A stretch of DNA of 64,000 nucleotides from Escherichia coli (GTDB lineage: Bacteria > Pseudomonadota > Gammaproteobacteria > Enterobacterales > Enterobacteriaceae): assembly GCF_045037415.1 (NCBI RefSeq), contig NZ_CP173438.1; one strand, 5' to 3'. The notes beneath the pieces were generated by a model that made no database searches, was not told where the DNA came from, and was given only the letters and a program-made list of their open reading frames with translations. Positions 1-13,230 of this stretch are shown here, piece by piece. The stretch's first letter is position 1. Each line of letters starts with the position of its first letter. The translations under genes were made by a program, and so were the position numbers.

Positions 1-2
1 AG

Positions 3-1625
3 CGTCAGTCGTTCGAGCCGCACTGGCGCGAGTTGAGTGATTACATCAACCCGCGTGGTTCCCGCTTTCTGACTTCTGAGGCCAACCGTAACGATCGGCG
101 CAATACACGCATTATTGATTCGACCGGGACTATGGCGGCGCGCACTCTCGCCAGCGGCATGATGTCAGGCATCACAAGCCCCGCGCGTCCGTGGTTTCGC
201 CTGGCTACGCCAGATCCTGAAATGATGGATTATGGCCCTGTTAAGTTGTGGCTTGAGGCGGTGCAGAACCGCATGAACGATATGTTCAATAAGTCGAATC
301 TCTATCAGTCTCTGCCGCAGTTATACGGAAGCCTCGGCACATACAGCACTGGTGCAATGGCAGTGCTGGAGGATGACGAGGACATCATTCGCACAATGCC
401 ATTCCCGATAGGCAGTTACTACCTGGCTAACTCACCTCGTGGCAGTGTGGACACCTGTTTTCGCAAGTTCTCTATGACTGTTCGTCAGCTTGTTCAGGAG
501 TTCGGGCTAAATAACGTCAGCGAATCCGTAAAAAGCATGTGGGAAAGCGGCACCTACGAGAAGTGGATTGACGTGATGCATTCGGTTTACCCGAACATTG
601 ACCGCGATACATCGAAGCTGGATAGCAAGAACAAGCCATTCAAATCGGTTTATTACGAGGTTGGTGGCGATAACGACAAGTTGTTGCGTGAGTCCGGATT
701 TGATGAGTTTCCAATTATGGCTCCGCGCTGGGAAGTTAACGGCGAAGATGTTTATGGATCATCATGCCCGGGTATGCTGGCGCTTGGACCTGTTAAGGCA
801 TTGCAGCTTCTCCAGAAGCGCAAGTCGCAGTTGATTGATAAAGCCACCAATCCGCCGATGGTTGCTCCGACTTCCCTCAAGAATCAGCGCGCCTCCCTTC
901 TTCCTGGCGACATCACGTATATCGATCAGATTACTGGTCAGGATGGCTTCAGGCCTGCTTATCTGGTTAACCCCAGTACAGCAGATTTGGTAGCAGACAT
1001 TCAGGACACTCGTCAAATCATTAACAGCGCCTACTTTGTCGATCTGTTCATGATGTTGCAGAACATCAATACCCGCTCGATGCCTGTTGAAGCGGTGATC
1101 GAAATGAAAGAAGAAAAACTTCTGATGTTGGGGCCGGTTCTGGAGCGCCTGAACGACGAATGTCTTAATCCTCTCATTGACCGCGCTTTCTCGATGATGG
1201 TGCGTAAAAACATGCTGCCGCCACCGCCAGACGTGATGGAAGGTATGCCCCTGAAGGTCGAATACATTTCCGTCATGGCTCAGGCGCAGAAGTCTATCGG
1301 CCTGTCCAGTCTGGCGTCCACGGTTAACTTCATTGGTCAACTTGCGCAAGCGAAACCAGAAGCTCTCGACAAACTCAACGTTGATCAGGCGATCGATGCA
1401 TTCGCTGATATGTCCGGAGTGTCTCCAACCGTCATTGTTCCGCAGGAACAGGTTGAGCAGGCTCGCCAGCAACGGGCACAGCAGCAACAGCAACAACAAA
1501 TGATGGCGGTGGGGATGGCGGCGGCACAGGGTGCCAAGACGCTAAGCGAAGCTAAAACTTCGGATCCGAGTGTTTTGACAGCTATGGCGAATGCAGTTAG
1601 TGGTCAGGGTGGGCAATCACAATGA
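3..1625 (+). CDS. Portal (head-to-tail connector) protein, 5' end outside window
   Basis: Frame is open to the window edge; at least 540 aa; sits just upstream of scaffold and capsid genes; Gln-rich C-terminus. Confidence 0.7.
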   Translation, partial: RQSFEPHWRELSDYINPRGSRFLTSEANRNDRRNTRIIDSTGTMAARTLASGMMSGITSPARPWFRLATPDPEMMDYGPVKLWLEAVQNRMNDMFNKSNLYQSLPQLYGSLGTYSTGAMAVLEDDEDIIRTMPFPIGSYYLANSPRGSVDTCFRKFSMTVRQLVQEFGLNNVSESVKSMWESGTYEKWIDVMHSVYPNIDRDTSKLDSKNKPFKSVYYEVGGDNDKLLRESGFDEFPIMAPRWEVNGEDVYGSSCPGMLALGPVKALQLLQKRKSQLIDKATNPPMVAPTSLKNQRASLLPGDITYIDQITGQDGFRPAYLVNPSTADLVADIQDTRQIINSAYFVDLFMMLQNINTRSMPVEAVIEMKEEKLLMLGPVLERLNDECLNPLIDRAFSMMVRKNMLPPPPDVMEGMPLKVEYISVMAQAQKSIGLSSLASTVNFIGQLAQAKPEALDKLNVDQAIDAFADMSGVSPTVIVPQEQVEQARQQRAQQQQQQQMMAVGMAAAQGAKTLSEAKTSDPSVLTAMANAVSGQGGQSQ

Positions 1626-1918
1626 CAGATTACGAAGACGATCAACTGAAAGAAGAAAACGCCCGTAAGCAACGTGACATGGCGCAGCGTGAAATTGATG
1701 ACATTCGCTTTGTCATGAGCAGTGAACAAGGGCGTCGCGTTGTCTGGTCGGTGCTGGAGAAAGGCCGTGTGTTTTCCGCTATCTCACCGATGGACGCTAT
1801 GGCAATGGCATTTAATGAGGGGCAACGCAATCTGGCGCTGGAACTGTTTCAGCGCGTTATGGCGCATTGCCCTGAACAGTATTTGAAGATGGCCAAAGAG
1901 GCCAGTGAACAGGAGTGA
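1622..1918 (+). CDS. Hypothetical phage protein (98 aa)
   Basis: ATGA overlap with portal stop; co-oriented in the late operon. Confidence 0.6.
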   Translation: MTDYEDDQLKEENARKQRDMAQREIDDIRFVMSSEQGRRVVWSVLEKGRVFSAISPMDAMAMAFNEGQRNLALELFQRVMAHCPEQYLKMAKEASEQE

Positions 1919-1920
1919 TC

Positions 1921-2616
1921 ATGAATTTATTTGAGCGTTTGCTGTATCGCCGTCTTTGCAATGAGCAACCAGTCGATGGTGGAGCAGCTCCGGCTGCGTC
2001 AGAACCGTCAGCGCCTGCAGGTGATAACCCTGCTCCAGTTGGTGATCCATCACAACCGGAAGGTGATAAGCCACAACCTGTTGCTGATGGCGATAAACCT
2101 GCTGATGACAAAAAGCCTGAAAACGATAAGCAGGGTGAAAAAAAGGACGGCGATAAACCAGAGGGTGCGCCTGAGAAGTACGAGTTTCAGGCTGCCGAAG
2201 GCGTAGAGCTGGATACAGAAGCGTTGAAGGAATTCGAGCCGGTGGCGCGAGAACTTAACCTGACCAACGAGCAAGCGCAAAAGCTGGTTGATGCTTATCC
2301 GAAGATTCTGGCAGGTGTTCAGCAGCGCCAGGCAGAAGCCTGGCAGAAAACAACCGAGCAGTGGGCTGCGGATGTAAAAGCTGACAAAGAAATCGGTGGC
2401 GGCAAGTTGATTTCTAACCTTAGCGTCGCACAGCGTGCGCTTGACCAGTTCGGGACACCTGAACTCAAAGAATATCTGAACACCACCGGGCTGGGTAATC
2501 ACCCTGATCTGGTCAAAACGTTCGTGAGAATCGGAAAGGCGATGTCTGAAGATGGCATGGTCACCGGTGGTAATGAAGGCCAGCGTAGTGCGGCCGAAGT
2601 GCTCTATGGCAAATAA
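1921..2616 (+). CDS. Putative scaffolding protein
   Basis: AGGAG RBS then ATG at 1921; acidic Pro/Lys/Asp-rich N-terminus then helical region; position between portal and capsid. Confidence 0.6.
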   Translation: MNLFERLLYRRLCNEQPVDGGAAPAASEPSAPAGDNPAPVGDPSQPEGDKPQPVADGDKPADDKKPENDKQGEKKDGDKPEGAPEKYEFQAAEGVELDTEALKEFEPVARELNLTNEQAQKLVDAYPKILAGVQQRQAEAWQKTTEQWAADVKADKEIGGGKLISNLSVAQRALDQFGTPELKEYLNTTGLGNHPDLVKTFVRIGKAMSEDGMVTGGNEGQRSAAEVLYGK

Positions 2617-2624
2617 GAGAGGAA

Positions 2625-3617
2625 ATGACAATGGCTGTTAAAGGCTTAACTGCGCTAACGCTGGCTGACTGGGGTAAGCGCGTCGATCCAAACGGGAAAG
2701 TCGATAAGATTATCGAGCTTCTCGGTCAAACAAACCCGATCCTTCAGGATATGCCTTTTGTCGAAGGGAACCTTCCTACCGGACACCGAACCACCATTCG
2801 TTCTGGTTTACCTTCAGCTACCTGGCGTTTGCTGAACTATGGCGTACAGCCAAGCAAATCAACCACAGTGCAGGTAACCGATTACGTTGGCATGCTGGAA
2901 ACCTATGCTGAAGTCGATAAGTCACTGGCTGATCTGAACGGTAATACTGCCGAATTCCGCCTGTCTGAAGACCGCGCATTTATTGAAGCGATGAATCAGC
3001 AGATGGCGCAGACACTGTTTTATGGTGATTCCAGCGTTAACCCTCAGCAGTTTATGGGACTGTCCTCCCGCTATTCCAGCCTGTCTGCGGGTAATGCTCA
3101 GAACATCATTGATGCTGGTGGCACGAGTACAGATAACACCTCAATCTGGTTAGTGGTGTGGGGCGAAAACACCGTGCATGGCATCTTCCCGAAAGGGCAG
3201 AAGGCTGGCATCCAGATGGAAGATAAAGGCCAGGTGACACTGGAAGATGCGAATGGCGGCAAGTACGAAGGCTACCGTACCCATTACAAATGGGACAACG
3301 GACTTGCTCTGCGTGACTGGCGTTATGTTGTTCGCATTGCAAACATCGATGTCAGCAATCTTTCAGAACCTTCCTCTGCCGCAAATATTGCGAAGTTGAT
3401 GGTTAAAGCACTGCATCGCATTCCAAATCGTGGCATGGGTCGCCCGGTGTTCTACATGAACCGCACTGTAGGCCAGGCTCTTGATCTGCAATCTCTGGAG
3501 AAAACATCTCTGGCGATCAGCGTAAAAGAGACAGAAGGCGAGTGGTGGACTTCATTCCGTGGTGTACCAATCCGTGAAACTGATGCGCTTCTGGAAACAG
3601 AAGCCCGCGTGGTGTAA
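2625..3617 (+). CDS. Major capsid protein (about 330 aa)
   Basis: Position after scaffold; size typical of HK97-fold capsid proteins; ATG at 2631 has the better RBS spacing; stem-loop immediately downstream. Confidence 0.7.
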   Translation: MTMAVKGLTALTLADWGKRVDPNGKVDKIIELLGQTNPILQDMPFVEGNLPTGHRTTIRSGLPSATWRLLNYGVQPSKSTTVQVTDYVGMLETYAEVDKSLADLNGNTAEFRLSEDRAFIEAMNQQMAQTLFYGDSSVNPQQFMGLSSRYSSLSAGNAQNIIDAGGTSTDNTSIWLVVWGENTVHGIFPKGQKAGIQMEDKGQVTLEDANGGKYEGYRTHYKWDNGLALRDWRYVVRIANIDVSNLSEPSSAANIAKLMVKALHRIPNRGMGRPVFYMNRTVGQALDLQSLEKTSLAISVKETEGEWWTSFRGVPIRETDALLETEARVV

Positions 3618-3668
3618 CGCCTGTTATTAACCTGTGGGTCGTAACAGACCCACTAATGGAGAAAGAAG

Positions 3669-4106
3669 ATGATCACCGACAAACTGTTGATGTTCTCCGA
3701 AGCTCAGGCGGTTACGAATACCGCGGCTTCTACTGACGTAATCGATCTCGGTCCAATTGACGGAAAACGTCGTGATATCGGCGTGGGTTATCCGCTTGAG
3801 TTTTGGGTGCTGGTTAACGAAGCCGCCACGGCAAGTGGTGAGGAAACTGTAAACATCCAGTTGCAGACGAGTGAGAATAACAGCTCATGGTCCACTATTT
3901 ATGATAGTGGCGCACTGGCAAAGGATACCCTGACAGCAGGTAAACGAGTTGTTTCTGCAAAGGTGCCTGCCGGTGTTCAGCGATATCTGCGTGTTAACTA
4001 CTCCGTCGCAACTGGCCCACTAACGGCTGGCGAATTCACTGCTGGTATCAGTCTTGATGTTGATGCCAATACGCCGTATCCGATCCGCTCAAAAGTAACT
4101 GGTTAA
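3669..4106 (+). CDS. Hypothetical virion protein (145 aa)
   Basis: ORF with RBS (GGAGAAAG) in late operon. Confidence 0.55.
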   Translation: MITDKLLMFSEAQAVTNTAASTDVIDLGPIDGKRRDIGVGYPLEFWVLVNEAATASGEETVNIQLQTSENNSSWSTIYDSGALAKDTLTAGKRVVSAKVPAGVQRYLRVNYSVATGPLTAGEFTAGISLDVDANTPYPIRSKVTG

Positions 4107-4116
4107 GGTGATATTT

Positions 4117-4452
4117 ATGTCAGGTGAGAAACCAAGATACCGCGTTCTGCGCCTCTCTCATATCCATAACACTCTGTGGCCGGAGGGGGCAGAAATCGAA
4201 TACGAAGGTGAGCCTGGTAGCGCACTGGAACCTGTTAACGATGCAGCCAGACAGGCAAAAGCAAAGGTAGCAGGAAAGGTGTCTATGGCAGCAACCAGCA
4301 CCAAAATCATCAACGATGTGTCAGATGATGGTGAACTGGATAAGCTCCGTGAAGAGTACGAATTGCTCTTTAACGAGAAGCCACACCATAACGCCAAAGC
4401 AGAAACGCTCCGCGAGAAGATCGCAGATAAGCGTAAAGAACTGGGCGTGTAA
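4117..4452 (+). CDS. Hypothetical phage protein (about 111 aa)
   Basis: ORF in late operon; ATG at 4117 preceded by AAGGTG. Confidence 0.55.
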   Translation: MSGEKPRYRVLRLSHIHNTLWPEGAEIEYEGEPGSALEPVNDAARQAKAKVAGKVSMAATSTKIINDVSDDGELDKLREEYELLFNEKPHHNAKAETLREKIADKRKELGV

Positions 4453-4502
4453 GCCTCGCGGATGAGACAAGGGGCTTCGGCCCCTTTATTGCAGGAGTGT
4501 AT

Positions 4503-4826
4503 ATGGAACTCGTAAACCTCAAAACCGGCACTGACAGCTACCAGGATGAGAGCGGAGAAACCAGAACTCGCGATGAATACCCGTGGGGGCTGTGCATCAC
4601 GCTGAATAACGACACATTGAATAAGCTGAAGGCGCAACCTCAGGGCGTCGGAACAGAAGTGATGATAACTGCAAAGGCTGTTATCCGAGGCCTGTCTGCC
4701 AGAGAAACTGACGATGGCGTTAATCGCAGCGCCGATCTGCAGATCACTGATATGGCGATCGCTCCTGTTTCCGGGGATGTAGAAAAATCAGCGGCTGAAA
4801 CTCTGTACGGTAACGGAGGTGAGTGA
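4503..4826 (+). CDS. Small virion protein, possible capsid decoration protein
   Basis: CAGGAG RBS then ATG at 4503; size and position match a small capsid-associated protein in epsilon15-type layouts (inference). Confidence 0.45.
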   Translation: MELVNLKTGTDSYQDESGETRTRDEYPWGLCITLNNDTLNKLKAQPQGVGTEVMITAKAVIRGLSARETDDGVNRSADLQITDMAIAPVSGDVEKSAAETLYGNGGE

Positions 4827-5431
4827 TGGCCTCTGTAGTAGAGATCTGTAATCGTGCGCTGTCCAATATTGGCAACAGCCGCAGCATTAACAGCCTGACG
4901 GAAGCCAGCAAGGAAGCGGGGGAATGTTCGCTGCACTTTGAGGCCTGCCGTGATGCTGTGCTTTCTGATTTTGACTGGAACTTTGCTACCAAACGCGTGG
5001 CGCTTGCAGATACGAGCAATCCACCGCCTGACTGGGAATATGCGTACCAGTACCCGTCAGATTGTCTGCGCATTACTGAAATTATGCTTCCTGGTGTACG
5101 CAATCCAACAGCAGCAATGCGCGTTCAGTACGAAGTTGGTGCAGACACCAACGGAACAGGAAAATTGATCTACACAGACCAGCCGCAGGCATGGCTCAAG
5201 TATGTCTCTCGCGTTTCAGATGTAAACATGTTTGATGCCATTTTTATGGAGGCGCTGGCCTGGCGTCTTGCGGCAGCCATTAACATGGCGCTGACTGGGA
5301 ATGCGGATCTCGGTACATTTGCTCTCAATATGTACAATCGCGTGATTCTTAGTGCTGGCTCGCATAGCCAGAATGAATCACAGGAACCACAGCCACCGGT
5401 TGACGAGTTTACCATTGCGAGGTTGTCCTGA
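4826..5431 (+). CDS. Tail tubular protein A-like adaptor (about 200 aa)
   Basis: GGAGG RBS; size and position before a roughly 820-aa protein as in T7 gp11/gp12. Confidence 0.55.
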   Translation: MASVVEICNRALSNIGNSRSINSLTEASKEAGECSLHFEACRDAVLSDFDWNFATKRVALADTSNPPPDWEYAYQYPSDCLRITEIMLPGVRNPTAAMRVQYEVGADTNGTGKLIYTDQPQAWLKYVSRVSDVNMFDAIFMEALAWRLAAAINMALTGNADLGTFALNMYNRVILSAGSHSQNESQEPQPPVDEFTIARLS

Positions 5432-7902
5432 TGGCTATCAGTTGGATCCAGCCCAGCTTTGCCGGTGGTGAGATTGGACCGTCGTTGTACGGGCGTATTG
5501 ACATGGCGAAGTACCAGGTGGCATTGCGCAAGTGCGATAACTTTATCGTGCGGCAGTATGGCGGCGTTGAGAATCGACCAGGTACGCGTTTTGTCGGTGC
5601 CGCCAAATACCCAAATCGGAAATGCCGCCTGATCCCGTTCCAGTTCTCGACGGTTCAGACCTATGCTCTGGAGTTCGGACACCAGTACATGCGCGTTATC
5701 AAAGATGGTGCGTTGGTGCTGAACAGCAGCAATGTTATTTATGAAATTGCCACGCCATATACTGAAGCCGATCTGTTCCGAATTAAATTCACGCAAAGCG
5801 CCGACGTGCTTACGCTTGTTCATCCGGCATACCCGCCGAAAGAGTTGCGTCGCTATGCGCATGACAACTGGCAACTGGTTGATGTGGTAACGAAGAACGG
5901 ACCATTTGAAGATATCAATATTGACGAGTCAGTGACGGTTTATGCCAGCGCCAGCACCGGGACAATTACGTTAACGGCAAGCGCCTCTATTTTTGGCGCG
6001 GAGCAGGTAGGCAAATTGTTCTATCTGGAACAGCCTGCAGTGGATTCTGTGCCGGTATGGGAAACCAGTAAGAGTACGTCAATTGGCGATATTCGCCGTG
6101 CAGACAGTAACTACTATCGCGCCGTTACAGTAGGCAAAACAGGCACTTTGCGCCCTTCGCATACAGAAGGCACATCATGGGATGGCTGGGGCGGATCCGG
6201 TGATGATGATACCGGCATTGAGTGGGAGTATCTGCACAGTGGTTTTGGCATTGCCCGTATCTCTGCTGCAAATGGAACTACTGCAACTGCCGAGGTGATT
6301 TCCTATATCCCTTCGCAGGTAGTTGGCGAGGATAATGCCAGCTATAAATGGGCTAAATATGCCTGGAACAGTGTTAATGGTTATCCTGGCACTGTTGTTT
6401 ATTATCAACAACGTCTTTACTTCGCCGCATCGACTGCGTTTCCTCAGACTATCTGGGCCAGCCGTACCGGGGATTATAAGGATTTTGGCAAAAGCAATCC
6501 TACGCAGGATGACGACAGAATTATCTACACCTATGCCGGGCGTCAGGTTAATGAGATCCGCCACCTGATTGATGTTGGTTCGCTGGTGGCGCTGACTTCC
6601 GGAGGTGAGTACGTCATCACTGGCGACCAGAACAAAGTGCTTACCCCATCATCATTTGCATTCAGCTCTCAGGGATCAAATGGCTCGAGCAATGTCCCAC
6701 CAATTGCCGTGGCGAATATTGCTCTGTTCGTCCAAGAGAAAGGCAGTGTTGTCCGTGATCTGGCCTACTCATTCGATGTTGACGGCTATCAGGGGAACGA
6801 CCTGACCATCCTTGCCAATCATCTTTTTCAGAAGCACAGCATTGTTGACTGGTGCTTCTCGATAGTCCCTTACTCCAGCGCCTTCTGCATTCGTGATGAC
6901 GGTAAATTACTGGTGATGACCTATTTGCGTGATCAGCAGGTTTTTGCATGGGCACCACAATCCAGTACCGGAAAATATGAAAGCACATGCAGTATCAGCG
7001 AAGGAAATGAAGATGCGGTGTATTTCGTCGTTAACCGAACCGTTAACGGGCAAACAGTGAGATACATCGAGCGACTGTCCAGCCGTTTATTTACCAGCGA
7101 TGAAGATGCTTTCTTTGTTGATTCTGGCCTTAGCTATGATGGAAGAAATACGTCTGACAGAACGATGATCATCACTGGTGGTTCTGGCGAATGGGATTAC
7201 CGCGAGGAATATACAATCAGTGTTTCTGGTGGTGCGTACTTCACCAGTAGTGATATCGGTGCCCAACTACAGTTCCCTTATACCGGAACTGATCCTGATA
7301 CTGGCGATGAAGTGTCAAAAGAATTACGTTGCGACATTATTTCTGTAACCAGCAATACCGCTGTAGTGGTTCGTGCTAACAGGAACGTCCCGCCATCCCT
7401 CAGGAATGTGGCCACCACGAACTGGCAGATGGCGCGCCGGACATTTGGAGGCCTGTCTCATCTTGAAGGCCAGACCGTAAACATTCTCTCTGATGCGAAC
7501 GTGGAACCACAGAAAGTGGTTTCCGGAGGTGCCGTCACGCTGGAATCTCCGGGGGCTGTAGTGCACATCGGCCTGCCAATAACTGCTGAATTCGAAACAC
7601 TGGATATCAACATTAACGGACAGGAAACGCTGCTGGACAAAAAACAGGTGATCCCCTCCGTTACTCTGGTTGTGAATGCCAGTCGCGGCATCTGGGCGAC
7701 TACGCCCGGCGGTAAATGGTACGAATATCCACAGCGTGAATTCGAGTTCTACGATGATCCTGTTGATGATGCTACCGGAAAAGTAGAAGTGAAACTGGAC
7801 AGTAACTGGGGCAAAAACGGACGTGTAAAAATCCGTCAGCTTGATCCGTTGCCGCTGTCTGTTCTTGCCGTTATTCCTCGCCTTACTGTTGGGGGATTCT
7901 GA
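5431..7902 (+). CDS. Tail tubular protein B-like nozzle protein (823 aa)
   Basis: ATGA overlap with upstream gene; size and position equivalent to T7 gp12. Confidence 0.55.
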   Translation: MAISWIQPSFAGGEIGPSLYGRIDMAKYQVALRKCDNFIVRQYGGVENRPGTRFVGAAKYPNRKCRLIPFQFSTVQTYALEFGHQYMRVIKDGALVLNSSNVIYEIATPYTEADLFRIKFTQSADVLTLVHPAYPPKELRRYAHDNWQLVDVVTKNGPFEDINIDESVTVYASASTGTITLTASASIFGAEQVGKLFYLEQPAVDSVPVWETSKSTSIGDIRRADSNYYRAVTVGKTGTLRPSHTEGTSWDGWGGSGDDDTGIEWEYLHSGFGIARISAANGTTATAEVISYIPSQVVGEDNASYKWAKYAWNSVNGYPGTVVYYQQRLYFAASTAFPQTIWASRTGDYKDFGKSNPTQDDDRIIYTYAGRQVNEIRHLIDVGSLVALTSGGEYVITGDQNKVLTPSSFAFSSQGSNGSSNVPPIAVANIALFVQEKGSVVRDLAYSFDVDGYQGNDLTILANHLFQKHSIVDWCFSIVPYSSAFCIRDDGKLLVMTYLRDQQVFAWAPQSSTGKYESTCSISEGNEDAVYFVVNRTVNGQTVRYIERLSSRLFTSDEDAFFVDSGLSYDGRNTSDRTMIITGGSGEWDYREEYTISVSGGAYFTSSDIGAQLQFPYTGTDPDTGDEVSKELRCDIISVTSNTAVVVRANRNVPPSLRNVATTNWQMARRTFGGLSHLEGQTVNILSDANVEPQKVVSGGAVTLESPGAVVHIGLPITAEFETLDININGQETLLDKKQVIPSVTLVVNASRGIWATTPGGKWYEYPQREFEFYDDPVDDATGKVEVKLDSNWGKNGRVKIRQLDPLPLSVLAVIPRLTVGGF

Positions 7903-8366
7903 TGATCGATGTTCAAATTATTCCCGCAACCGAAGAGCATCTTCAGATGATTTTGCCGGATGTTCGTCAGGCTGATATTGACGAACTGTATGCGGTATCA
8001 CTGATGACTACCGAAGATGCGCTGCGTGTTGGTCTGCGTACTGCGACTATGGCCTGGTCAGGATTTGCGAACGGAGAACTGGTAACCATGTTTGGCGTAT
8101 CTCCGGCGTCAATGATCGGTGGCAATGGTACGCCATGGCTGGTAGGAACCAGCCGTATTGAAAAATATCAGAAGACATTTCTTCGCCACTGCCGCCCTGT
8201 ATTGCAGCAGATGCTGGCAGTTTATCCGCGTCTGGAAAACTACGTCGACGAGCGAAACCATGTTGCCAAAGCATGGCTCCACTGGCTTGGATTCAGGCTT
8301 GAAGAAGCCGCGCCTTATGGTGCTCTTGGTCTTAATTTCCACAGATTTCACATGGAGAGAAAATAA
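7902..8366 (+). CDS. Hypothetical virion protein (154 aa)
   Basis: Overlapping start and stop in late operon. Confidence 0.55.
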   Translation: MIDVQIIPATEEHLQMILPDVRQADIDELYAVSLMTTEDALRVGLRTATMAWSGFANGELVTMFGVSPASMIGGNGTPWLVGTSRIEKYQKTFLRHCRPVLQQMLAVYPRLENYVDERNHVAKAWLHWLGFRLEEAAPYGALGLNFHRFHMERK

Positions 8367-8905
8367 TGTGTAACCCAGCCATCGCTTTGGTTGCCGTCAC
8401 AGTGGCATCCACAGCCGCGTCAATGTACAGCCAGAGCAAGCAGGCAAAATACCAGTCAGCCATAGCTGATCGGAATGCTGAAATTGCTGAAGCTCAGGCA
8501 CAGGATTCAATCAATCGTGGGAATATTGAAGCGGATCAGCGTCGTCGTGAAATGCGTCAACGCTCAGGCACTGCGGCGGCCACTATGGGGGCTACCGGTG
8601 CGGAATTAAGTAGCGGAACAGCTCTTGACGTTTTTGCGGATAATGCTCAGTTCGGCGCTCTTGATGCGTTAACGACAGTGAATAATGCTCAGCGTGAGGC
8701 ATATGGGTATCAGGTTCAGGGAATGAATGCTCAGGCACAGGGGGCTGCTGCTCAGTCGGCTGCTAAATCATCGATGACCAGCACTTTGTTAACAGCACCA
8801 CTAAAAGCATACGGTGCATACCAGATGGGCGGAGGAACGTGGAGCCCATTCTCTCAGAAGGCTGCGCCGATTTCTGCTGCTGTTGGCACTCCAACCGGTC
8901 GATAA
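8366..8905 (+). CDS. Internal virion protein with hydrophobic N-terminus (179 aa)
   Basis: TAATG overlap; hydrophobic N-terminal segment; position equivalent to T7 gp14. Confidence 0.5.
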   Translation: MCNPAIALVAVTVASTAASMYSQSKQAKYQSAIADRNAEIAEAQAQDSINRGNIEADQRRREMRQRSGTAAATMGATGAELSSGTALDVFADNAQFGALDALTTVNNAQREAYGYQVQGMNAQAQGAAAQSAAKSSMTSTLLTAPLKAYGAYQMGGGTWSPFSQKAAPISAAVGTPTGR

Positions 8906-8917
8906 GGGGATAATAAG

Positions 8918-11431
8918 ATGCCAGTTGTACCAACAACATCGGGCCGTCAGGTTCAGAGCAGAGGGATTTCGACGCAGGGATTCTCATCGTTTCAGACGCC
9001 AAATGTCGGTGATGTACTTGGCGATGTTGCAGAGCAATATGCAGGTATTATTGCGCAGGCAAAACAGCGTGCGAATGTTGCTATGGCTCAGGATGCTTCT
9101 CTTAGCTTAAGCCAGATAAGCAGCGATCTGCTGAATAACCCTGAAACAGGTTTGCTTAACCTGAAAGGGAAAAATGCTATTGGAAAAGGTCAGGAGTATA
9201 CGCAGCAGTTTGATGCCCAGGTCGAGCAACTGGCTATGTCGCTGCCGGATGAACAGGCTCGTAATGCTTTCATGCAGCAGGCGCAGCAGCAGCGCATTCA
9301 GTTCACTACGCAGGCCGGGCGGCACGAGATAGGGCAAATAAATGCCTACGAAGAAGGCCAGTTTCAGGCGACGCTGCTGAACAATGGTAAAAATGCCGCA
9401 GCATTGTATGGCGACAACGCCGCATACGTATTGGCTAATAAGCAAACTTTCCAGCAAATTGAGGATTACGGCATTGCGCATGGCTGGAGCGACGAGCAAA
9501 TCCAGGCCAAGAAAATCGAGTTTAAAGAGAAGGTTGCTGATGCAGCATTGTCCCAGTGGTCGGCAAACAATGCGACCGCATTCATCCAAAGTAATGGCGA
9601 GTTAAGTGATACTGCTGCTGGAGCTAGCCGTGCTGTAGCAGATAGTGATTCTTCCGAGCGTGCCCGTGGCATACGCAACAATAACCCAGGAAATCTCGAA
9701 TACAGCAAAACCAATCCGTGGGTAGGCCAGACCGGTGATGATGGTCGATTTGCTAAATTCGAAACACCTGAACACGGGATTCGTGCATTAGGGCGGAACC
9801 TGATGTCGTATCAGAGGCAGGGTATTGATACCGTCAGCGAGATAATTAATCGCTGGGCACCGCCTACTGATAAAAATGACACTATGTCGTATATCAAAGC
9901 AGTGTGCGAACAACTTGGCGTTTCTGCTGATGAGCCTCTCGATGCATCTAATCCTGATACCCTGAAGGCGCTTTGTGCAGCCATTATCCATCATGAGAAC
10001 GGTAGCCAGCCATACAGTGATCAGCTGTTAAGTGCTGGTGTCAGTGCAGCACTTGGTTTATCAACAATTCCAACCAACACCAAACGCTATACCGGTAATG
10101 CAGCATTCGATGCGGCATCTCCTGAGGCGCAGGCAAGTTTTATGCGACAGGCGGATCAACTGCGTCGGCAGCAGCAGGCTGAATATAAAACGATGATTGA
10201 CAGCCAAGTTCGCGATGCGACAGCTGCGTATATGCGTGGCGTTGAATTTCCTAACCCACCTGGTGAGGCTGATTTTATTGCAGCTTATGGAGTCAGAGAA
10301 GGAAACCTGCGATATACCGAGTTCAGAAATACGCAAATCGCCGGACAGTATATAGGCTCTTTCCGCAACATGCCGACAAGCAGCATTACAGCATATGTTG
10401 AGCAATTACGCCCGGATACTGGTGAGACAGGGGAGGGTTATGCGGCACGAGCCGCTCTTTATGACAACGTTGTGTCGGCTGCAAGTCAGGTGATAAAGCA
10501 GCGACAGGCTGATCCTGTACAGTTCTCTCTTGCCGCCGGACAGGCAAAGCCTATCGACATGAGCAATAAGGATAACTTTGGACAGAGCGTTGCCTTGCGT
10601 GCTGCTCAGGTCAGTGACCTTGCTAAGTCATATGGCACTCCACTGACGTTCTTTTCCAAAGACGAGGCCAATCAGATCGGTGTTTTCTTTCGTAATGCGC
10701 CCGTTTCCCAACAGGCAGCATATCTCGATACCATCAGGCAGAGCACTGGTGGTGGGCAGGTGTATATGTCAGCACTACAGCAGATCAGTGCCAACGCTCC
10801 ATCTGCTGCCGTTGCCGGGATACTGATGGATAAGCCAGGTGGTATTTTGGCAGAAAAAAACTGGTTTAATCCGGATGTTTCCGTGTCTCCTGAAACCGCT
10901 GCGCAGACAATTCTTGCTGGCGCGGCGGCTCGTAAAGGTACTGATGACGCGAAAGGTATTCCGATGCCTAAAGATGCTGATCTTCGCCTTGAGTTTTCTG
11001 ACATGGTGAAGGATGCATTTGCTGGTGATGCTCAGGGGGCATCAATGGCATACGAGATCGCAAAGGACTATTACGCTGGTGTGATGGCGAAAAAAGGCGT
11101 GGTATCAGGCGAAATTGACAATGATATCTGGAAACAGGCTGTTAACGTAGCTACAGGTGGCGTGCATGACTATAACGGAATGGGGAATGTTCTTTTGCCT
11201 TGGGGAATGTCTGCAGAGCAATTCGATAAGCAGGTTAATCAGGTTTGGAATGAACAAGTTGTTGGCACAGGGATAAAAACACCGCCTGGTCAGTATGGTT
11301 TGCAAAGTTACGGCGATAGTCAGTACCTGGTGAAACTTGGTACTGGTTATCTGCTAAAAGATGATGGTTCTCCCGTTGTTCTTGATCTGACACAGAAGCG
11401 TCAGAGATTCTCCGGAGATATTCCGCAATGA
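8918..11431 (+). CDS. Large internal virion (ejection/core) protein, 837 aa
   Basis: RBS AAGGGGA; first of three consecutive large proteins equivalent to podovirus core proteins; contains a GIRNNNPGNL motif block. Confidence 0.6.
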   Translation: MPVVPTTSGRQVQSRGISTQGFSSFQTPNVGDVLGDVAEQYAGIIAQAKQRANVAMAQDASLSLSQISSDLLNNPETGLLNLKGKNAIGKGQEYTQQFDAQVEQLAMSLPDEQARNAFMQQAQQQRIQFTTQAGRHEIGQINAYEEGQFQATLLNNGKNAAALYGDNAAYVLANKQTFQQIEDYGIAHGWSDEQIQAKKIEFKEKVADAALSQWSANNATAFIQSNGELSDTAAGASRAVADSDSSERARGIRNNNPGNLEYSKTNPWVGQTGDDGRFAKFETPEHGIRALGRNLMSYQRQGIDTVSEIINRWAPPTDKNDTMSYIKAVCEQLGVSADEPLDASNPDTLKALCAAIIHHENGSQPYSDQLLSAGVSAALGLSTIPTNTKRYTGNAAFDAASPEAQASFMRQADQLRRQQQAEYKTMIDSQVRDATAAYMRGVEFPNPPGEADFIAAYGVREGNLRYTEFRNTQIAGQYIGSFRNMPTSSITAYVEQLRPDTGETGEGYAARAALYDNVVSAASQVIKQRQADPVQFSLAAGQAKPIDMSNKDNFGQSVALRAAQVSDLAKSYGTPLTFFSKDEANQIGVFFRNAPVSQQAAYLDTIRQSTGGGQVYMSALQQISANAPSAAVAGILMDKPGGILAEKNWFNPDVSVSPETAAQTILAGAAARKGTDDAKGIPMPKDADLRLEFSDMVKDAFAGDAQGASMAYEIAKDYYAGVMAKKGVVSGEIDNDIWKQAVNVATGGVHDYNGMGNVLLPWGMSAEQFDKQVNQVWNEQVVGTGIKTPPGQYGLQSYGDSQYLVKLGTGYLLKDDGSPVVLDLTQKRQRFSGDIPQ

Positions 11432-13230
11432 GTTACTTTGGCCTTAATCCAGTAAACCAGAATCAGCAGCTTGACGAAGCAGCATCAAATCCAGCTGGCT
11501 TTAACAGCGATGTTGGTTTTTTCGACAATGCTGTAGGAGCGGCATTGTCTGGTTTGTACTCCGGGCTGGTGGCAAAGCCAGATCAGTTGCTCTGGGCAGG
11601 GATGGATAAAATCGTATCCCCGATTGCTCAGTTTGTTAACGAAAACACCTCGCTCAATGACACTTCAGTTTCATACATTGCCGAGCAGAGAAAACTAGCA
11701 GAGCAGCAGGTTAAGCGGCTGACGCCTGATGCCGCGACAACCGGAACCGCCGGGCAGGTTCTTTATGGGTTGTTCGATATGGGCGGGCAGGCTGTTGTCG
11801 GTACAACGCTCGGTGGTCCTGTCGGAGGTGCAGCGGCGGTAACTTCGCTACAGGGTTTTTCTGAGTTTGAACGGCTGACAGCACAGGGTGTTGATTTCAG
11901 GACAGCGCAGGAAGCGGGATTAGTGCAGGGCATTACTGCTGGGGCCGGGACATTGATCCCTATGAGCCTCGGGTTACGTGCTGGTGGTGCGCTGGCGGAA
12001 GGTGTGGCGGCTCAGCTCGCGCGGACGGGTGAGAGTTCAGTGCGACGCGCCGCAGCAACAGCAGTACGTGCAACGCCAGATATTGCCTATGCCGCAGGTA
12101 CAAATATTGCGTTCGGTATGGCACAGCGTGGGCTTACTGCAAAAACGCTTCGTGATGGTGGCTATAGCGAAATGGCTAACCAGTATGATGTGTTGGATCG
12201 ACAGGCAATTGCTATTGATGCTGTTCTTGGGGTGGCGTTTGGTGGTGTCGGCAGATTTATTAACTCTCGCGGCGAGTCTACAAGCGCACCAAATTTTTCA
12301 CAAGTTGATGTTGATGCTGCACTGGCGGCGAATGCCGCTCATCATGCTGAAATTGATATTGCGCCCGGCGTGCCGATCAACGTGCTTTCGCGCAATTCTC
12401 ACATTCAGGCTCTGCGAAAAGCTATGTCTGATGTTAGCCAAGGGAGACCTGTAGACGTTGCCAGCATTGTTGAGTCTGCATCTTTCAGTGAAATTCCTGG
12501 GCGCAAGAGTCTGCTGTCTCAGGCAGTTAATGAGGCTCTGTCATCTGTAGATGATGGAGTAACGGCGCGCTCTATAGAAAATCGGTTGCTTGAAGAACAG
12601 GCCGCGCAGCTTTTGCCGCGTGGAGATAGACAGGTTTACCAGTCTGAAATCGCTAATAGCCAACGAATTATTGAAAATCTCACTGAACAGCGTGCACAAA
12701 TTCTTGCAGAAGATCCAACCGGTAGCGGTAAAGCTTTGTCTCGTGCTCGATCAGATAAACAGGCCAGACTTCGCGATATTGATCAACGAATCCGGCAGGC
12801 ACAAGAACGCCTGGAATTTTCCCGTAACGCGTTGGCACCGCACGAGCCTGGCGGTCAGTTTTTTGAAGCTCGAGCAGAACTGGCTCGGAGACAGCAGGCA
12901 GAAAGTGAACTTAATGCTCAGGCTGTTTCATTCTATAAAACAGCAGAGGTCAGGACGCCAGACGAAGTAGCTCCTTTTGAGCCTGATAAAATATTGCAAC
13001 AGGCAGAACAAAAAATGATGGCGGATCAGGCGGGAGATATTGATCTGCGCATAGCTGAAGACTCGCTGCTTGAATCACCTGACATGATAATCACCGTGCT
13101 GGATGATGATGGTAATCCACAATCGCGCAGCGCGCGTGAAGTACTGGATGAAGCGAACAGGGAAAGTGAGCAGGCAATACAGGATTCAAGCCTGTTTGAT
13201 GTAGCTGTGGCGTGTTTCTTGAGAGGTTAA
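11428..13230 (+). CDS. Internal virion protein, 600 aa
   Basis: ATGA overlap; Ala/Gly-rich N-terminal half, coiled-coil-like C-terminal half. Confidence 0.55.
   Translation: MSYFGLNPVNQNQQLDEAASNPAGFNSDVGFFDNAVGAALSGLYSGLVAKPDQLLWAGMDKIVSPIAQFVNENTSLNDTSVSYIAEQRKLAEQQVKRLTPDAATTGTAGQVLYGLFDMGGQAVVGTTLGGPVGGAAAVTSLQGFSEFERLTAQGVDFRTAQEAGLVQGITAGAGTLIPMSLGLRAGGALAEGVAAQLARTGESSVRRAAATAVRATPDIAYAAGTNIAFGMAQRGLTAKTLRDGGYSEMANQYDVLDRQAIAIDAVLGVAFGGVGRFINSRGESTSAPNFSQVDVDAALAANAAHHAEIDIAPGVPINVLSRNSHIQALRKAMSDVSQGRPVDVASIVESASFSEIPGRKSLLSQAVNEALSSVDDGVTARSIENRLLEEQAAQLLPRGDRQVYQSEIANSQRIIENLTEQRAQILAEDPTGSGKALSRARSDKQARLRDIDQRIRQAQERLEFSRNALAPHEPGGQFFEARAELARRQQAESELNAQAVSFYKTAEVRTPDEVAPFEPDKILQQAEQKMMADQAGDIDLRIAEDSLLESPDMIITVLDDDGNPQSRSAREVLDEANRESEQAIQDSSLFDVAVACFLRG

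Follow-up and report, generated by a model that had tools for sequence, protein, structure and literature searches.

The window, which is the whole stretch of 64,000 nucleotides that was analysed, starts within a prophage, and its first ~ 23 kb correspond to the right part of that prophage. The prophage is phiV10-like (genus Uetakevirus, epsilon15 group), with 97-98% identity to Escherichia phage phiV10 and its kin. All features described below are located on the plus strand. The major capsid protein gene, a member of the epsilon15 GP7 family, extends through positions 2631-3617 (Pfam PF20911 GP7, E = 2.9e-148; RefSeq annotation of the twin locus L089, described below; list of open reading frames). 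It has an alternative ATG at 2625 and ends with a TAA stop codon at 3615-3617. The gene is followed by a 16-nt spacer, CGCCTGTTATTAACCT (3618-3633), by a hairpin with a 7-bp stem, a 6-nt loop and no U-tract (3634-3653, hairpin 1), and by the ribosome-binding region TAATGGAGAAAGAAG (3654-3668) of the next gene, in which a GGAG Shine-Dalgarno sequence is found at 3658-3661. This next gene, at 3669-4106 with its ATG at 3669, codes for a capsid cement protein of the Bbp16 family (Pfam PF21190 Bbp16, E = 2.6e-47; RefSeq name in L089) and matches bbp16 of Bordetella phage BPP-1 in a tblastn search. The initial annotation had linked the hairpins of this region to capsid/scaffold stoichiometry; however, no scaffold gene is involved, the downstream gene being that of the cement protein. 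Further downstream comes a small ORF (4117-4452), the equivalent of epsilon15 gp9 according to the annotation of L089 and phiV10, for which the Pfam search returned no family. It is the last gene before a second hairpin with a U-rich tail (4469-4491, hairpin 2), a predicted intrinsic terminator placed after the block of capsid gene, cement gene and small ORF. The first gene after hairpin 2 specifies a gp10-like capsid staple protein (4503-4826; Pfam PF21628 Gp10-like, E = 1.1e-51; "capsid staple protein" in RefSeq).

A 301-bp segment across hairpin 1 is 100% identical to L089, a locus in E. coli A1.S1.18. Fifteen structural genes of this twin locus, beginning at the portal region and ending with the last large tail gene, overlap or are separated by gaps of ≤ 14 nt. 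There are two exceptions: a spacer of 51 nt separates the capsid gene from the cement gene, and one of 50 nt precedes gp10. Hairpins 1 and 2 occupy these two spacers, the only ones longer than 15 nt in the annotated 16-kb structural operon. The 301-bp segment is present in 518 of 5,426 complete E. coli genomes (about 10%), with a median of one copy per genome, and all matches listed fall under the capsid and cement genes. A host REP/BIME repeat was rejected as an explanation on the basis of this median and of the single copy of the hairpin 1 palindrome in the window. Since no phage RNA polymerase gene is annotated within 40 kb around the locus, it is presumably transcribed by the host enzyme.

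Two other candidate features of the junction were considered and rejected. An internal promoter in the spacer (TTAACC ... ACTAAT) would have a 19-nt spacing, and its transcript would miss the Shine-Dalgarno sequence. For programmed frameshifting or readthrough, no slippery heptamer is present 5-9 nt upstream, and the zero frame runs into a further TAA after 8 codons. A shortened capsid gene was observed in one viral contig (IMGVR_UViG_3300007747_000006; L016 and L172), where it stops 11 codons early with respect to all relatives (…GVPIREM*, just upstream of position 1501 in L016), with the spacer and hairpin 1 intact.

Structure and conservation of hairpin 1

Hairpin 1 is formed by the arms GTGGGTC (3634-3640) and GACCCAC (3647-3653), which enclose the loop GTAACA (3641-3646). 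There are 16 nt between the capsid TAA and the hairpin, and the stem begins 17 nt past the last base of the stop codon, in agreement with the sequence and position reported in the initial annotation. Five of the seven pairs are G-C, and the G+C-rich hairpin of intrinsic terminators is in this respect present. Its energy is -12.4 kcal/mol, with a probability of 0.99 for each pair in a 420-nt context. On the 3' side the hairpin continues into TAATGGAGAAAG, without a U-tract, and the flank UAAUGGAGAAAG is the Shine-Dalgarno sequence of the cement gene. An Rfam scan of window positions 1-12000, with E values up to 10, gave no match overlapping hairpin 1 or hairpin 2, and hairpin 1 is absent from the annotation of all inspected named-phage records and of the L089 locus.

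A single hairpin of this kind is not remarkable by itself, and its significance comes from conservation. Dinucleotide shuffles contain, per 64 kb, about 6.7 perfect 7-bp stems with at least five G/C pairs, while 28 were observed, nested ones included; the chance of finding such a stem in this particular 51-nt spacer is ~ 0.005. As a control, we followed an equally perfect 7-bp G+C-rich hairpin, GCCAGGC-AGAA-GCCTGGC, located inside the protease gene at 2327-2344. It is lost in the relatives Tyrion and Klebsiella phi3.2, and is probably a chance palindrome.

Conservation in related phages, suggested as a check in the initial annotation, was assessed on capsid-cement spacers collected from named phages, 80 close IMG/VR relatives, one GTDB genome per species, and 80 more distant viral contigs. 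Spacers from Enterobacterales collapse to 23 distinct sequences, in which the stem is kept with compensatory changes. In this set, 95.7% of pair cells are paired, and compensatory double changes are found at five of the seven pairs; for instance, the sixth pair changes from U-A to C-G within E. coli, and the first from G-C to A-U. Neither the paired fraction nor the covariation score was attained in any of 500 column shuffles, and sliding the partners by 1-3 columns drops pairing to 18-53%. RNAalifold applied to the 23-sequence alignment returns exactly the same seven pairs and no others. An extended helix between the upstream spacer and the Shine-Dalgarno side, which appears in some single-sequence folds, is missing from this consensus and was discarded. 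Stem arms have 59-68% identity to the window, compared with 74-78% in the flanks, and pairing is still kept. In addition, eight cells are G.U, equivalent to C.A mismatches on the opposite strand, against only one C.A cell. These strand-specific wobble pairs indicate that the folded molecule is the mRNA (sense) strand. On this comparative evidence, hairpin 1 is under selection as a sense-strand RNA structure.

We therefore give almost no credence to the alternative in which compensatory changes, strand-specific wobbles and stable RNA tetraloops would have to be accommodated by a hairpin without RNA function, be it a palindrome that arose by chance or a site acting at the DNA level, for example an operator for a dimeric protein. 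The number of perfect 7-bp G+C-rich stems expected by chance (~ 7 per 64 kb) and a stem mismatch in ~ 3% of E. coli-clade copies are in line with it. On the other side, unrelated hairpins are substituted at the same place and spacer lengths are sharply split, as described in the following section, while the control hairpin of the protease gene decays in relatives.

Hairpins at the capsid-cement junction of distant relatives

In relatives with 50-70% capsid identity, unrelated G+C-rich hairpins are located at the same junction. Bordetella phage BPP-1 carries CGGGGGCGG-GCGA-CCGCCCCCG after bbp17, delta-proteobacterial MAGs GGGGCCGGC-ACGA-GTCGGCCCC, a Verrucomicrobia MAG GGGCGGC-GTAATA-GCCGCCC, and the viral contig L124 CCCTCCCC-TTCG-GGGGAGGG; a hairpin is present at the capsid-cement junction of Burkholderia phage BcepC6B, too. 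The length of the spacer separates junctions with and without hairpins. The 67 unique capsid-to-cement spacers include 24 with a length of ≤ 38 nt, all of them without a hairpin, and 43 with a length of ≥ 44 nt, of which 36 have a simple hairpin and most others imperfect ones. Judged from these sequences, the spacer apparently serves to hold the hairpin. About half of the related phages are without hairpin 1, for example epsilon15, with a gap of 12 nt between the capsid gene and gp8.

Outside enterics, the hairpin mostly begins 5-9 nt past the capsid stop, against 15-17 nt in enterics, whereas the distance from the hairpin to the next start varies from 10 to 56 nt overall and from 12 to 56 nt outside enterics. 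From these distances, the hairpin is tied to the 3' end of the capsid cistron and not to the start of the cement gene. It is accordingly quite unlikely, in our estimation, that hairpin 1 serves the cement gene, either as a 5' stem-loop that would shield cement mRNA cut within the upstream spacer, or as an insulator or standby element of the ribosome-binding site. In the latter variant, the site would be kept free and cement translation would be uncoupled from capsid translation. The stem does end 2-6 nt before GGAG in all enterobacterial versions, and the upstream spacer, which is A/U-rich and conserved, could contain a cleavage site. However, the ribosome-binding site is predicted to be unpaired with a probability of 0.58 whether the hairpin is intact, compensated or deleted, and of 0.48-0.59 in arm mutants, the sole dip to 0.48 being seen in one context length only. 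Outside enterics the hairpin adjoins the capsid stop at 12-56 nt from the next start, and relatives without the hairpin have equally strong Shine-Dalgarno sequences. The ribosome-binding region itself shows 78% identity across divergent relatives, and its TGGAGA motif is invariant in the 23 relatives.

Frequent loops are of the GNRA (GAAA, GGAA, GUAA, GCAA, GCGA), UNCG (UUCG, UCCG) and N-UAAY-N types, and in one relative (L090) a GAAA loop is placed on the unchanged stem. Because loops are swappable and of stable types, selection seems to act on stability and not on a recognition sequence. The N-UAAY-N hexaloops GUAACA, UUAACU, GUAAUA, and UUAAUU recur on unrelated stems (3641-3646 in the window; L100, L108, L116, L155, and L156). 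An identical GUAACA loop caps a hairpin after the cement gene in L108, L116 has an N-UAAY-N loop on a U-tract terminator, and L091 has a true UAAC tetraloop version. N-UAAY-N is probably a favourable GNRA-like loop. A listing of non-coding hairpins under a crude ORF mask lost several known ones and was left out of the counts.

In the 16-nt spacer that leads from the capsid stop to the hairpin (3618-3633), identity across divergent relatives is 74%, compared with 41-55% at 4-fold degenerate sites of the capsid gene, and the spacer is by this measure conserved above the neutral rate. Distant relatives have CGCCAACC or CCTTAAC in place of its motif. Conservation of the spacer, together with the recurrence of N-UAAY-N or GNRA-like loops on unrelated stems in several lineages, could be explained by a specific protein-binding site composed of hairpin 1 and the spacer, acting as a translational operator or in nut/put-like antitermination past hairpin 2. 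We consider this extremely unlikely. Loops and stems are freely exchanged (GAAA, GGAA, TGAT, ACGA, TTCG), the same loop types also cap ordinary terminators and hairpins that follow other genes, and are probably just stable loops, and the spacer motif differs in distant relatives. Stem and loop sizes do not resemble boxB. Moreover, terminators of the hairpin 2 type exist without hairpin 1, which means that hairpin 1 is not needed to pass hairpin 2.

The beginning of the spacer, CGCCTGTTA, loosely resembles the boxA of lambda, CGCTCTTA. A nut site composed of boxA and boxB was nevertheless rejected as a candidate. The stem of 7 bp and the loop of 6 nt differ from the 5-bp stem and GNRA-like pentaloop, the spacer sequence CGCCTGTTATTAACC is only loosely boxA-like, with other motifs in distant relatives, and the locus lies in the late structural operon, while a nut site is expected in an early one.

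A broader proposal combines hairpin 1, the conserved spacer and the recurrent loops into a distinct regulatory device of BPP-1/phiV10-type head modules. Such a device would be a specific RNA-protein operator, or else an mccA-like ribosome-coupled terminator that would sense capsid translation and in this way set the capsid:cement ratio; we regard its existence as very unlikely.

Hairpin 2 and the U-tract contrast

Hairpin 2 is composed of AAGGGGC (4469-4475), the loop TTCG (4476-4479) and GCCCCTT (4480-4486), followed by TATT. The core of five G-C pairs, extended by two A-U pairs and closed by the UUCG loop, has an energy of -12.1 kcal/mol. Read from the G-C core, the tail is UUUAUUG, with five U among seven nucleotides, as in intrinsic terminators. 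The second hairpin with a U-rich tail, described in the initial annotation, is thus present in the sequence, its stem covering 4469-4486. The absence of a clear U-tract after hairpin 1, also stated there, holds as well: the tail UAAUGGA has two U among seven nucleotides, short of the U-tract of intrinsic terminators, and the Shine-Dalgarno sequence is found instead. The HUB model of bubble-edge dinucleotides (GC at -11/-10, RU at -2/-1; bioRxiv 10.64898/2026.05.29.728758) was also compared with the two elements, and with a phasing that was guessed the stem of hairpin 1 ends in AC and the core of hairpin 2 in CC.

Hairpin 2 (GGGGC-UUCG-GCCCC-UUUAUUG) is nearly invariant in enteric relatives. 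When a terminator of this type is defined as a G+C-rich hairpin with at least five T in the next 8 nt, one is found ~ 650-850 nt past the cement start, after the small ORF, in 77 of 96 unique loci. Terminators of the hairpin 2 type are also present in BPP-1, Pseudomonas phages AF and Ab31, Acinetobacter phage 4316, and epsilon15. Of the distinct combinations that include such a terminator, 25 have hairpin 1 and 16 lack it (e.g. epsilon15, AF, and Ab31), in a two-by-two table that is indicative only, all cases with neither element being collapsed to one row. A close relative, Escherichia phage EC.W1-9 (L008, 2641-2698), has no gp10 capsid staple gene, and its tail-tubular-A-like gene comes directly after the hairpin 2 terminator. 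The staple protein thus seems to be dispensable in the presence of the Bbp16-type cement protein.

With the same operons and the same polymerase, a U-tract is used at one junction and consistently omitted at the other, suggesting that hairpin 1 is meant to be read through. The two hairpins are different kinds of element. Treating them as one class, as was done initially, does not hold, although hairpin 2 by itself is terminator-like, as proposed.

It is on balance unlikely that hairpin 1 is a weak or conditional terminator or a pause site, perhaps aided by NusA/NusG or by the ribosome at the capsid stop. A fraction of polymerases would stop there, giving extra capsid transcripts with a monocistronic end. 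The G+C-rich stem comes directly after the most abundantly needed gene, and stems outside enterics begin 5-9 nt past the stop, close enough to touch a ribosome that terminates there. T-rich tails are seen in a few relatives, ATTTCTCT in L112 and GTTATTAC in the L152 group. In the window, however, the tail UAAUGGAGA has two U in 9 nt, and in 27 of 36 elements of the hairpin 1 type only 1-2 T are found in the 8 nt after the stem, while large-scale mapping identifies the U-tract as a defining feature of terminators (bioRxiv 10.64898/2026.05.29.728758). A proper U-tract is used at hairpin 2 in the same operons. A consensus scan for promoters and terminators found no promoter in the spacer and called neither hairpin as a terminator; hairpin 2 was missed only because the scan counts the first two U's of its tail as part of the stem.

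Known systems can be cited on both sides of this question. In the mccA-mccB operon (PMC4231749), as in hairpin 1, a spacer hairpin without a textbook U-tract follows a highly needed cistron. Termination at mccA-mccB depends on the ribosome, and the 3' ends map to adenines that come after the stem-loop and precede an A/T-rich region. The excess of the upstream message comes there from termination and stabilisation, and both termination and its dependence on ribosome binding were demonstrated by experiment. Furthermore, mccA is a 7-codon ORF, in contrast to the long and heavily translated capsid gene. In phages T7 and LUZ100, a terminator comes right after the capsid gene, ahead of the tail-tubular genes (PMC6938266; PMC10134795), and it is hairpin 2 that lies in the corresponding place here. 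The T7 terminator Tphi acts on the phage's own single-subunit polymerase, unlike the host enzyme presumed for this locus, and hairpin 1 is without the U-tract that terminators of both the Tphi and the host type have.

Possible role of hairpin 1 in the capsid mRNA

We favour, tentatively and at somewhat less than an even chance, a reading in which hairpin 1 is a protective 3' stem-loop for the capsid mRNA and hairpin 2 is a separate, leaky terminator. The initial annotation had offered stabilisation of the capsid mRNA or partial termination as general functions. Stabilisation fits all that was computed and is the preferred reading, while termination at hairpin 1 is the less likely part of that proposal, given the lack of a U-tract.

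According to the preferred reading, the stem-loop would fold in the sense strand of late mRNA between the capsid and cement genes. RNA polymerase would transcribe through it, and the cement gene would be translated from its own strong Shine-Dalgarno sequence just 3' of the hairpin. An endonuclease would cut the long structural transcript downstream of hairpin 1, 3'-to-5' exonucleases (PNPase, RNase II) would halt at the G+C-rich stem, and the capsid mRNA segment ending at the hairpin would outlast the distal transcript. The process would be one of selective RNA processing and stabilisation (SRPS), as at malE-malF. Hairpin 2, located 830 nt further, would act as an intrinsic terminator, canonical yet leaky, at the end of the head-shell block (capsid, cement, and small ORF), with the gp10 staple gene, the tail-tubular-A-like gene and further genes coming after it. 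We infer the exonuclease-barrier function and, with it, any effect that hairpin 1 may have on protein ratios.

Two features of SRPS elements are found at this locus. A stable stem-loop without a terminator motif is located between two cistrons, 3' of the favoured gene, and the structure is kept in orthologous operons, as seen from covariation in the 23 sequences and from the unrelated hairpins that distant relatives carry at this junction. The protective 3' structures known from operons of E. coli are kept across Enterobacteriaceae (E. coli, Salmonella, and Enterobacter) and can be serial (PMC5927463). It is also documented that stalling of PNPase scales with stem-loop stability in E. coli, and that a stem-loop with an RNase E site between two reporters leads to higher expression of the upstream gene (PMC10667835).

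Several observations count against a barrier or are left aside by it. With -12.4 kcal/mol, hairpin 1 is only moderately stable, and in reporter work a stem of -9.3 kcal/mol was weak and one of -25.4 kcal/mol strong (PMC10667835). No convincing RNase E motif was identifiable downstream of hairpin 1. Conservation of the 16-nt spacer is left unexplained by a protective barrier. In BPP-1, the Bbp16-type cement protein is reportedly used in a ratio of ~ 1:1 with the capsid protein, which makes the gain from favouring the capsid mRNA not obvious; for the same reason, the stoichiometry argument of the initial annotation is not obviously needed. A search of the accessible literature returned no transcript maps, 3'-end or half-life data for phiV10, epsilon15 or Uetakevirus.

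The closest parallels are malE-malF and menBCE (PMC5927463; PMC10667835). Like hairpin 1, they have a stable stem-loop without a terminator motif after the more needed gene of a polycistronic operon, and related hosts keep the structure in their orthologous operons. A stepwise gradient is described for menBCE, and hairpin 2, as a second structure, could give a similar one. Differences are seen in the origin and placement of the elements. The structure at malE-malF consists of REP repeats that are found across the host genome, whereas hairpin 1 is unique to the phage spacer. Protective structures reported by Dar and Sorek are mostly within coding sequence, whereas hairpin 1 has a spacer of its own. 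Hairpin 1 belongs to a well-known kind of element and is in this sense ordinary; the understanding of phage gene expression is unchanged by it. If the proposed role is true, it would represent a clear example, and a relatively well-supported one, of a phage that tunes its most needed structural gene post-transcriptionally in a long operon transcribed by the host polymerase. In practical terms, the two hairpins can assist in the annotation of a very common prophage family and could be used as small natural intercistronic parts for engineering.

The arrangement of two elements, in which the capsid gene is followed by a hairpin that would be non-terminating and the shell block by what would be a true terminator, recurs from E. 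coli prophages to Bordetella phage BPP-1. The equivalent of hairpin 2 in epsilon15 is annotated as a rho-independent terminator between gp9 and gp10 (NC_004775, stem_loop 7647-7686). It lies at the same junction and shares the G+C-rich stem and the U-tract. Hairpin 1 has no equivalent in epsilon15, in which the capsid-gp8 gap is 12 nt long. The epsilon15 terminator (3148-3187 in L006) differs in sequence and is bidirectional, with an A-tract upstream, whereas hairpin 2 of the phiV10 type is unidirectional.
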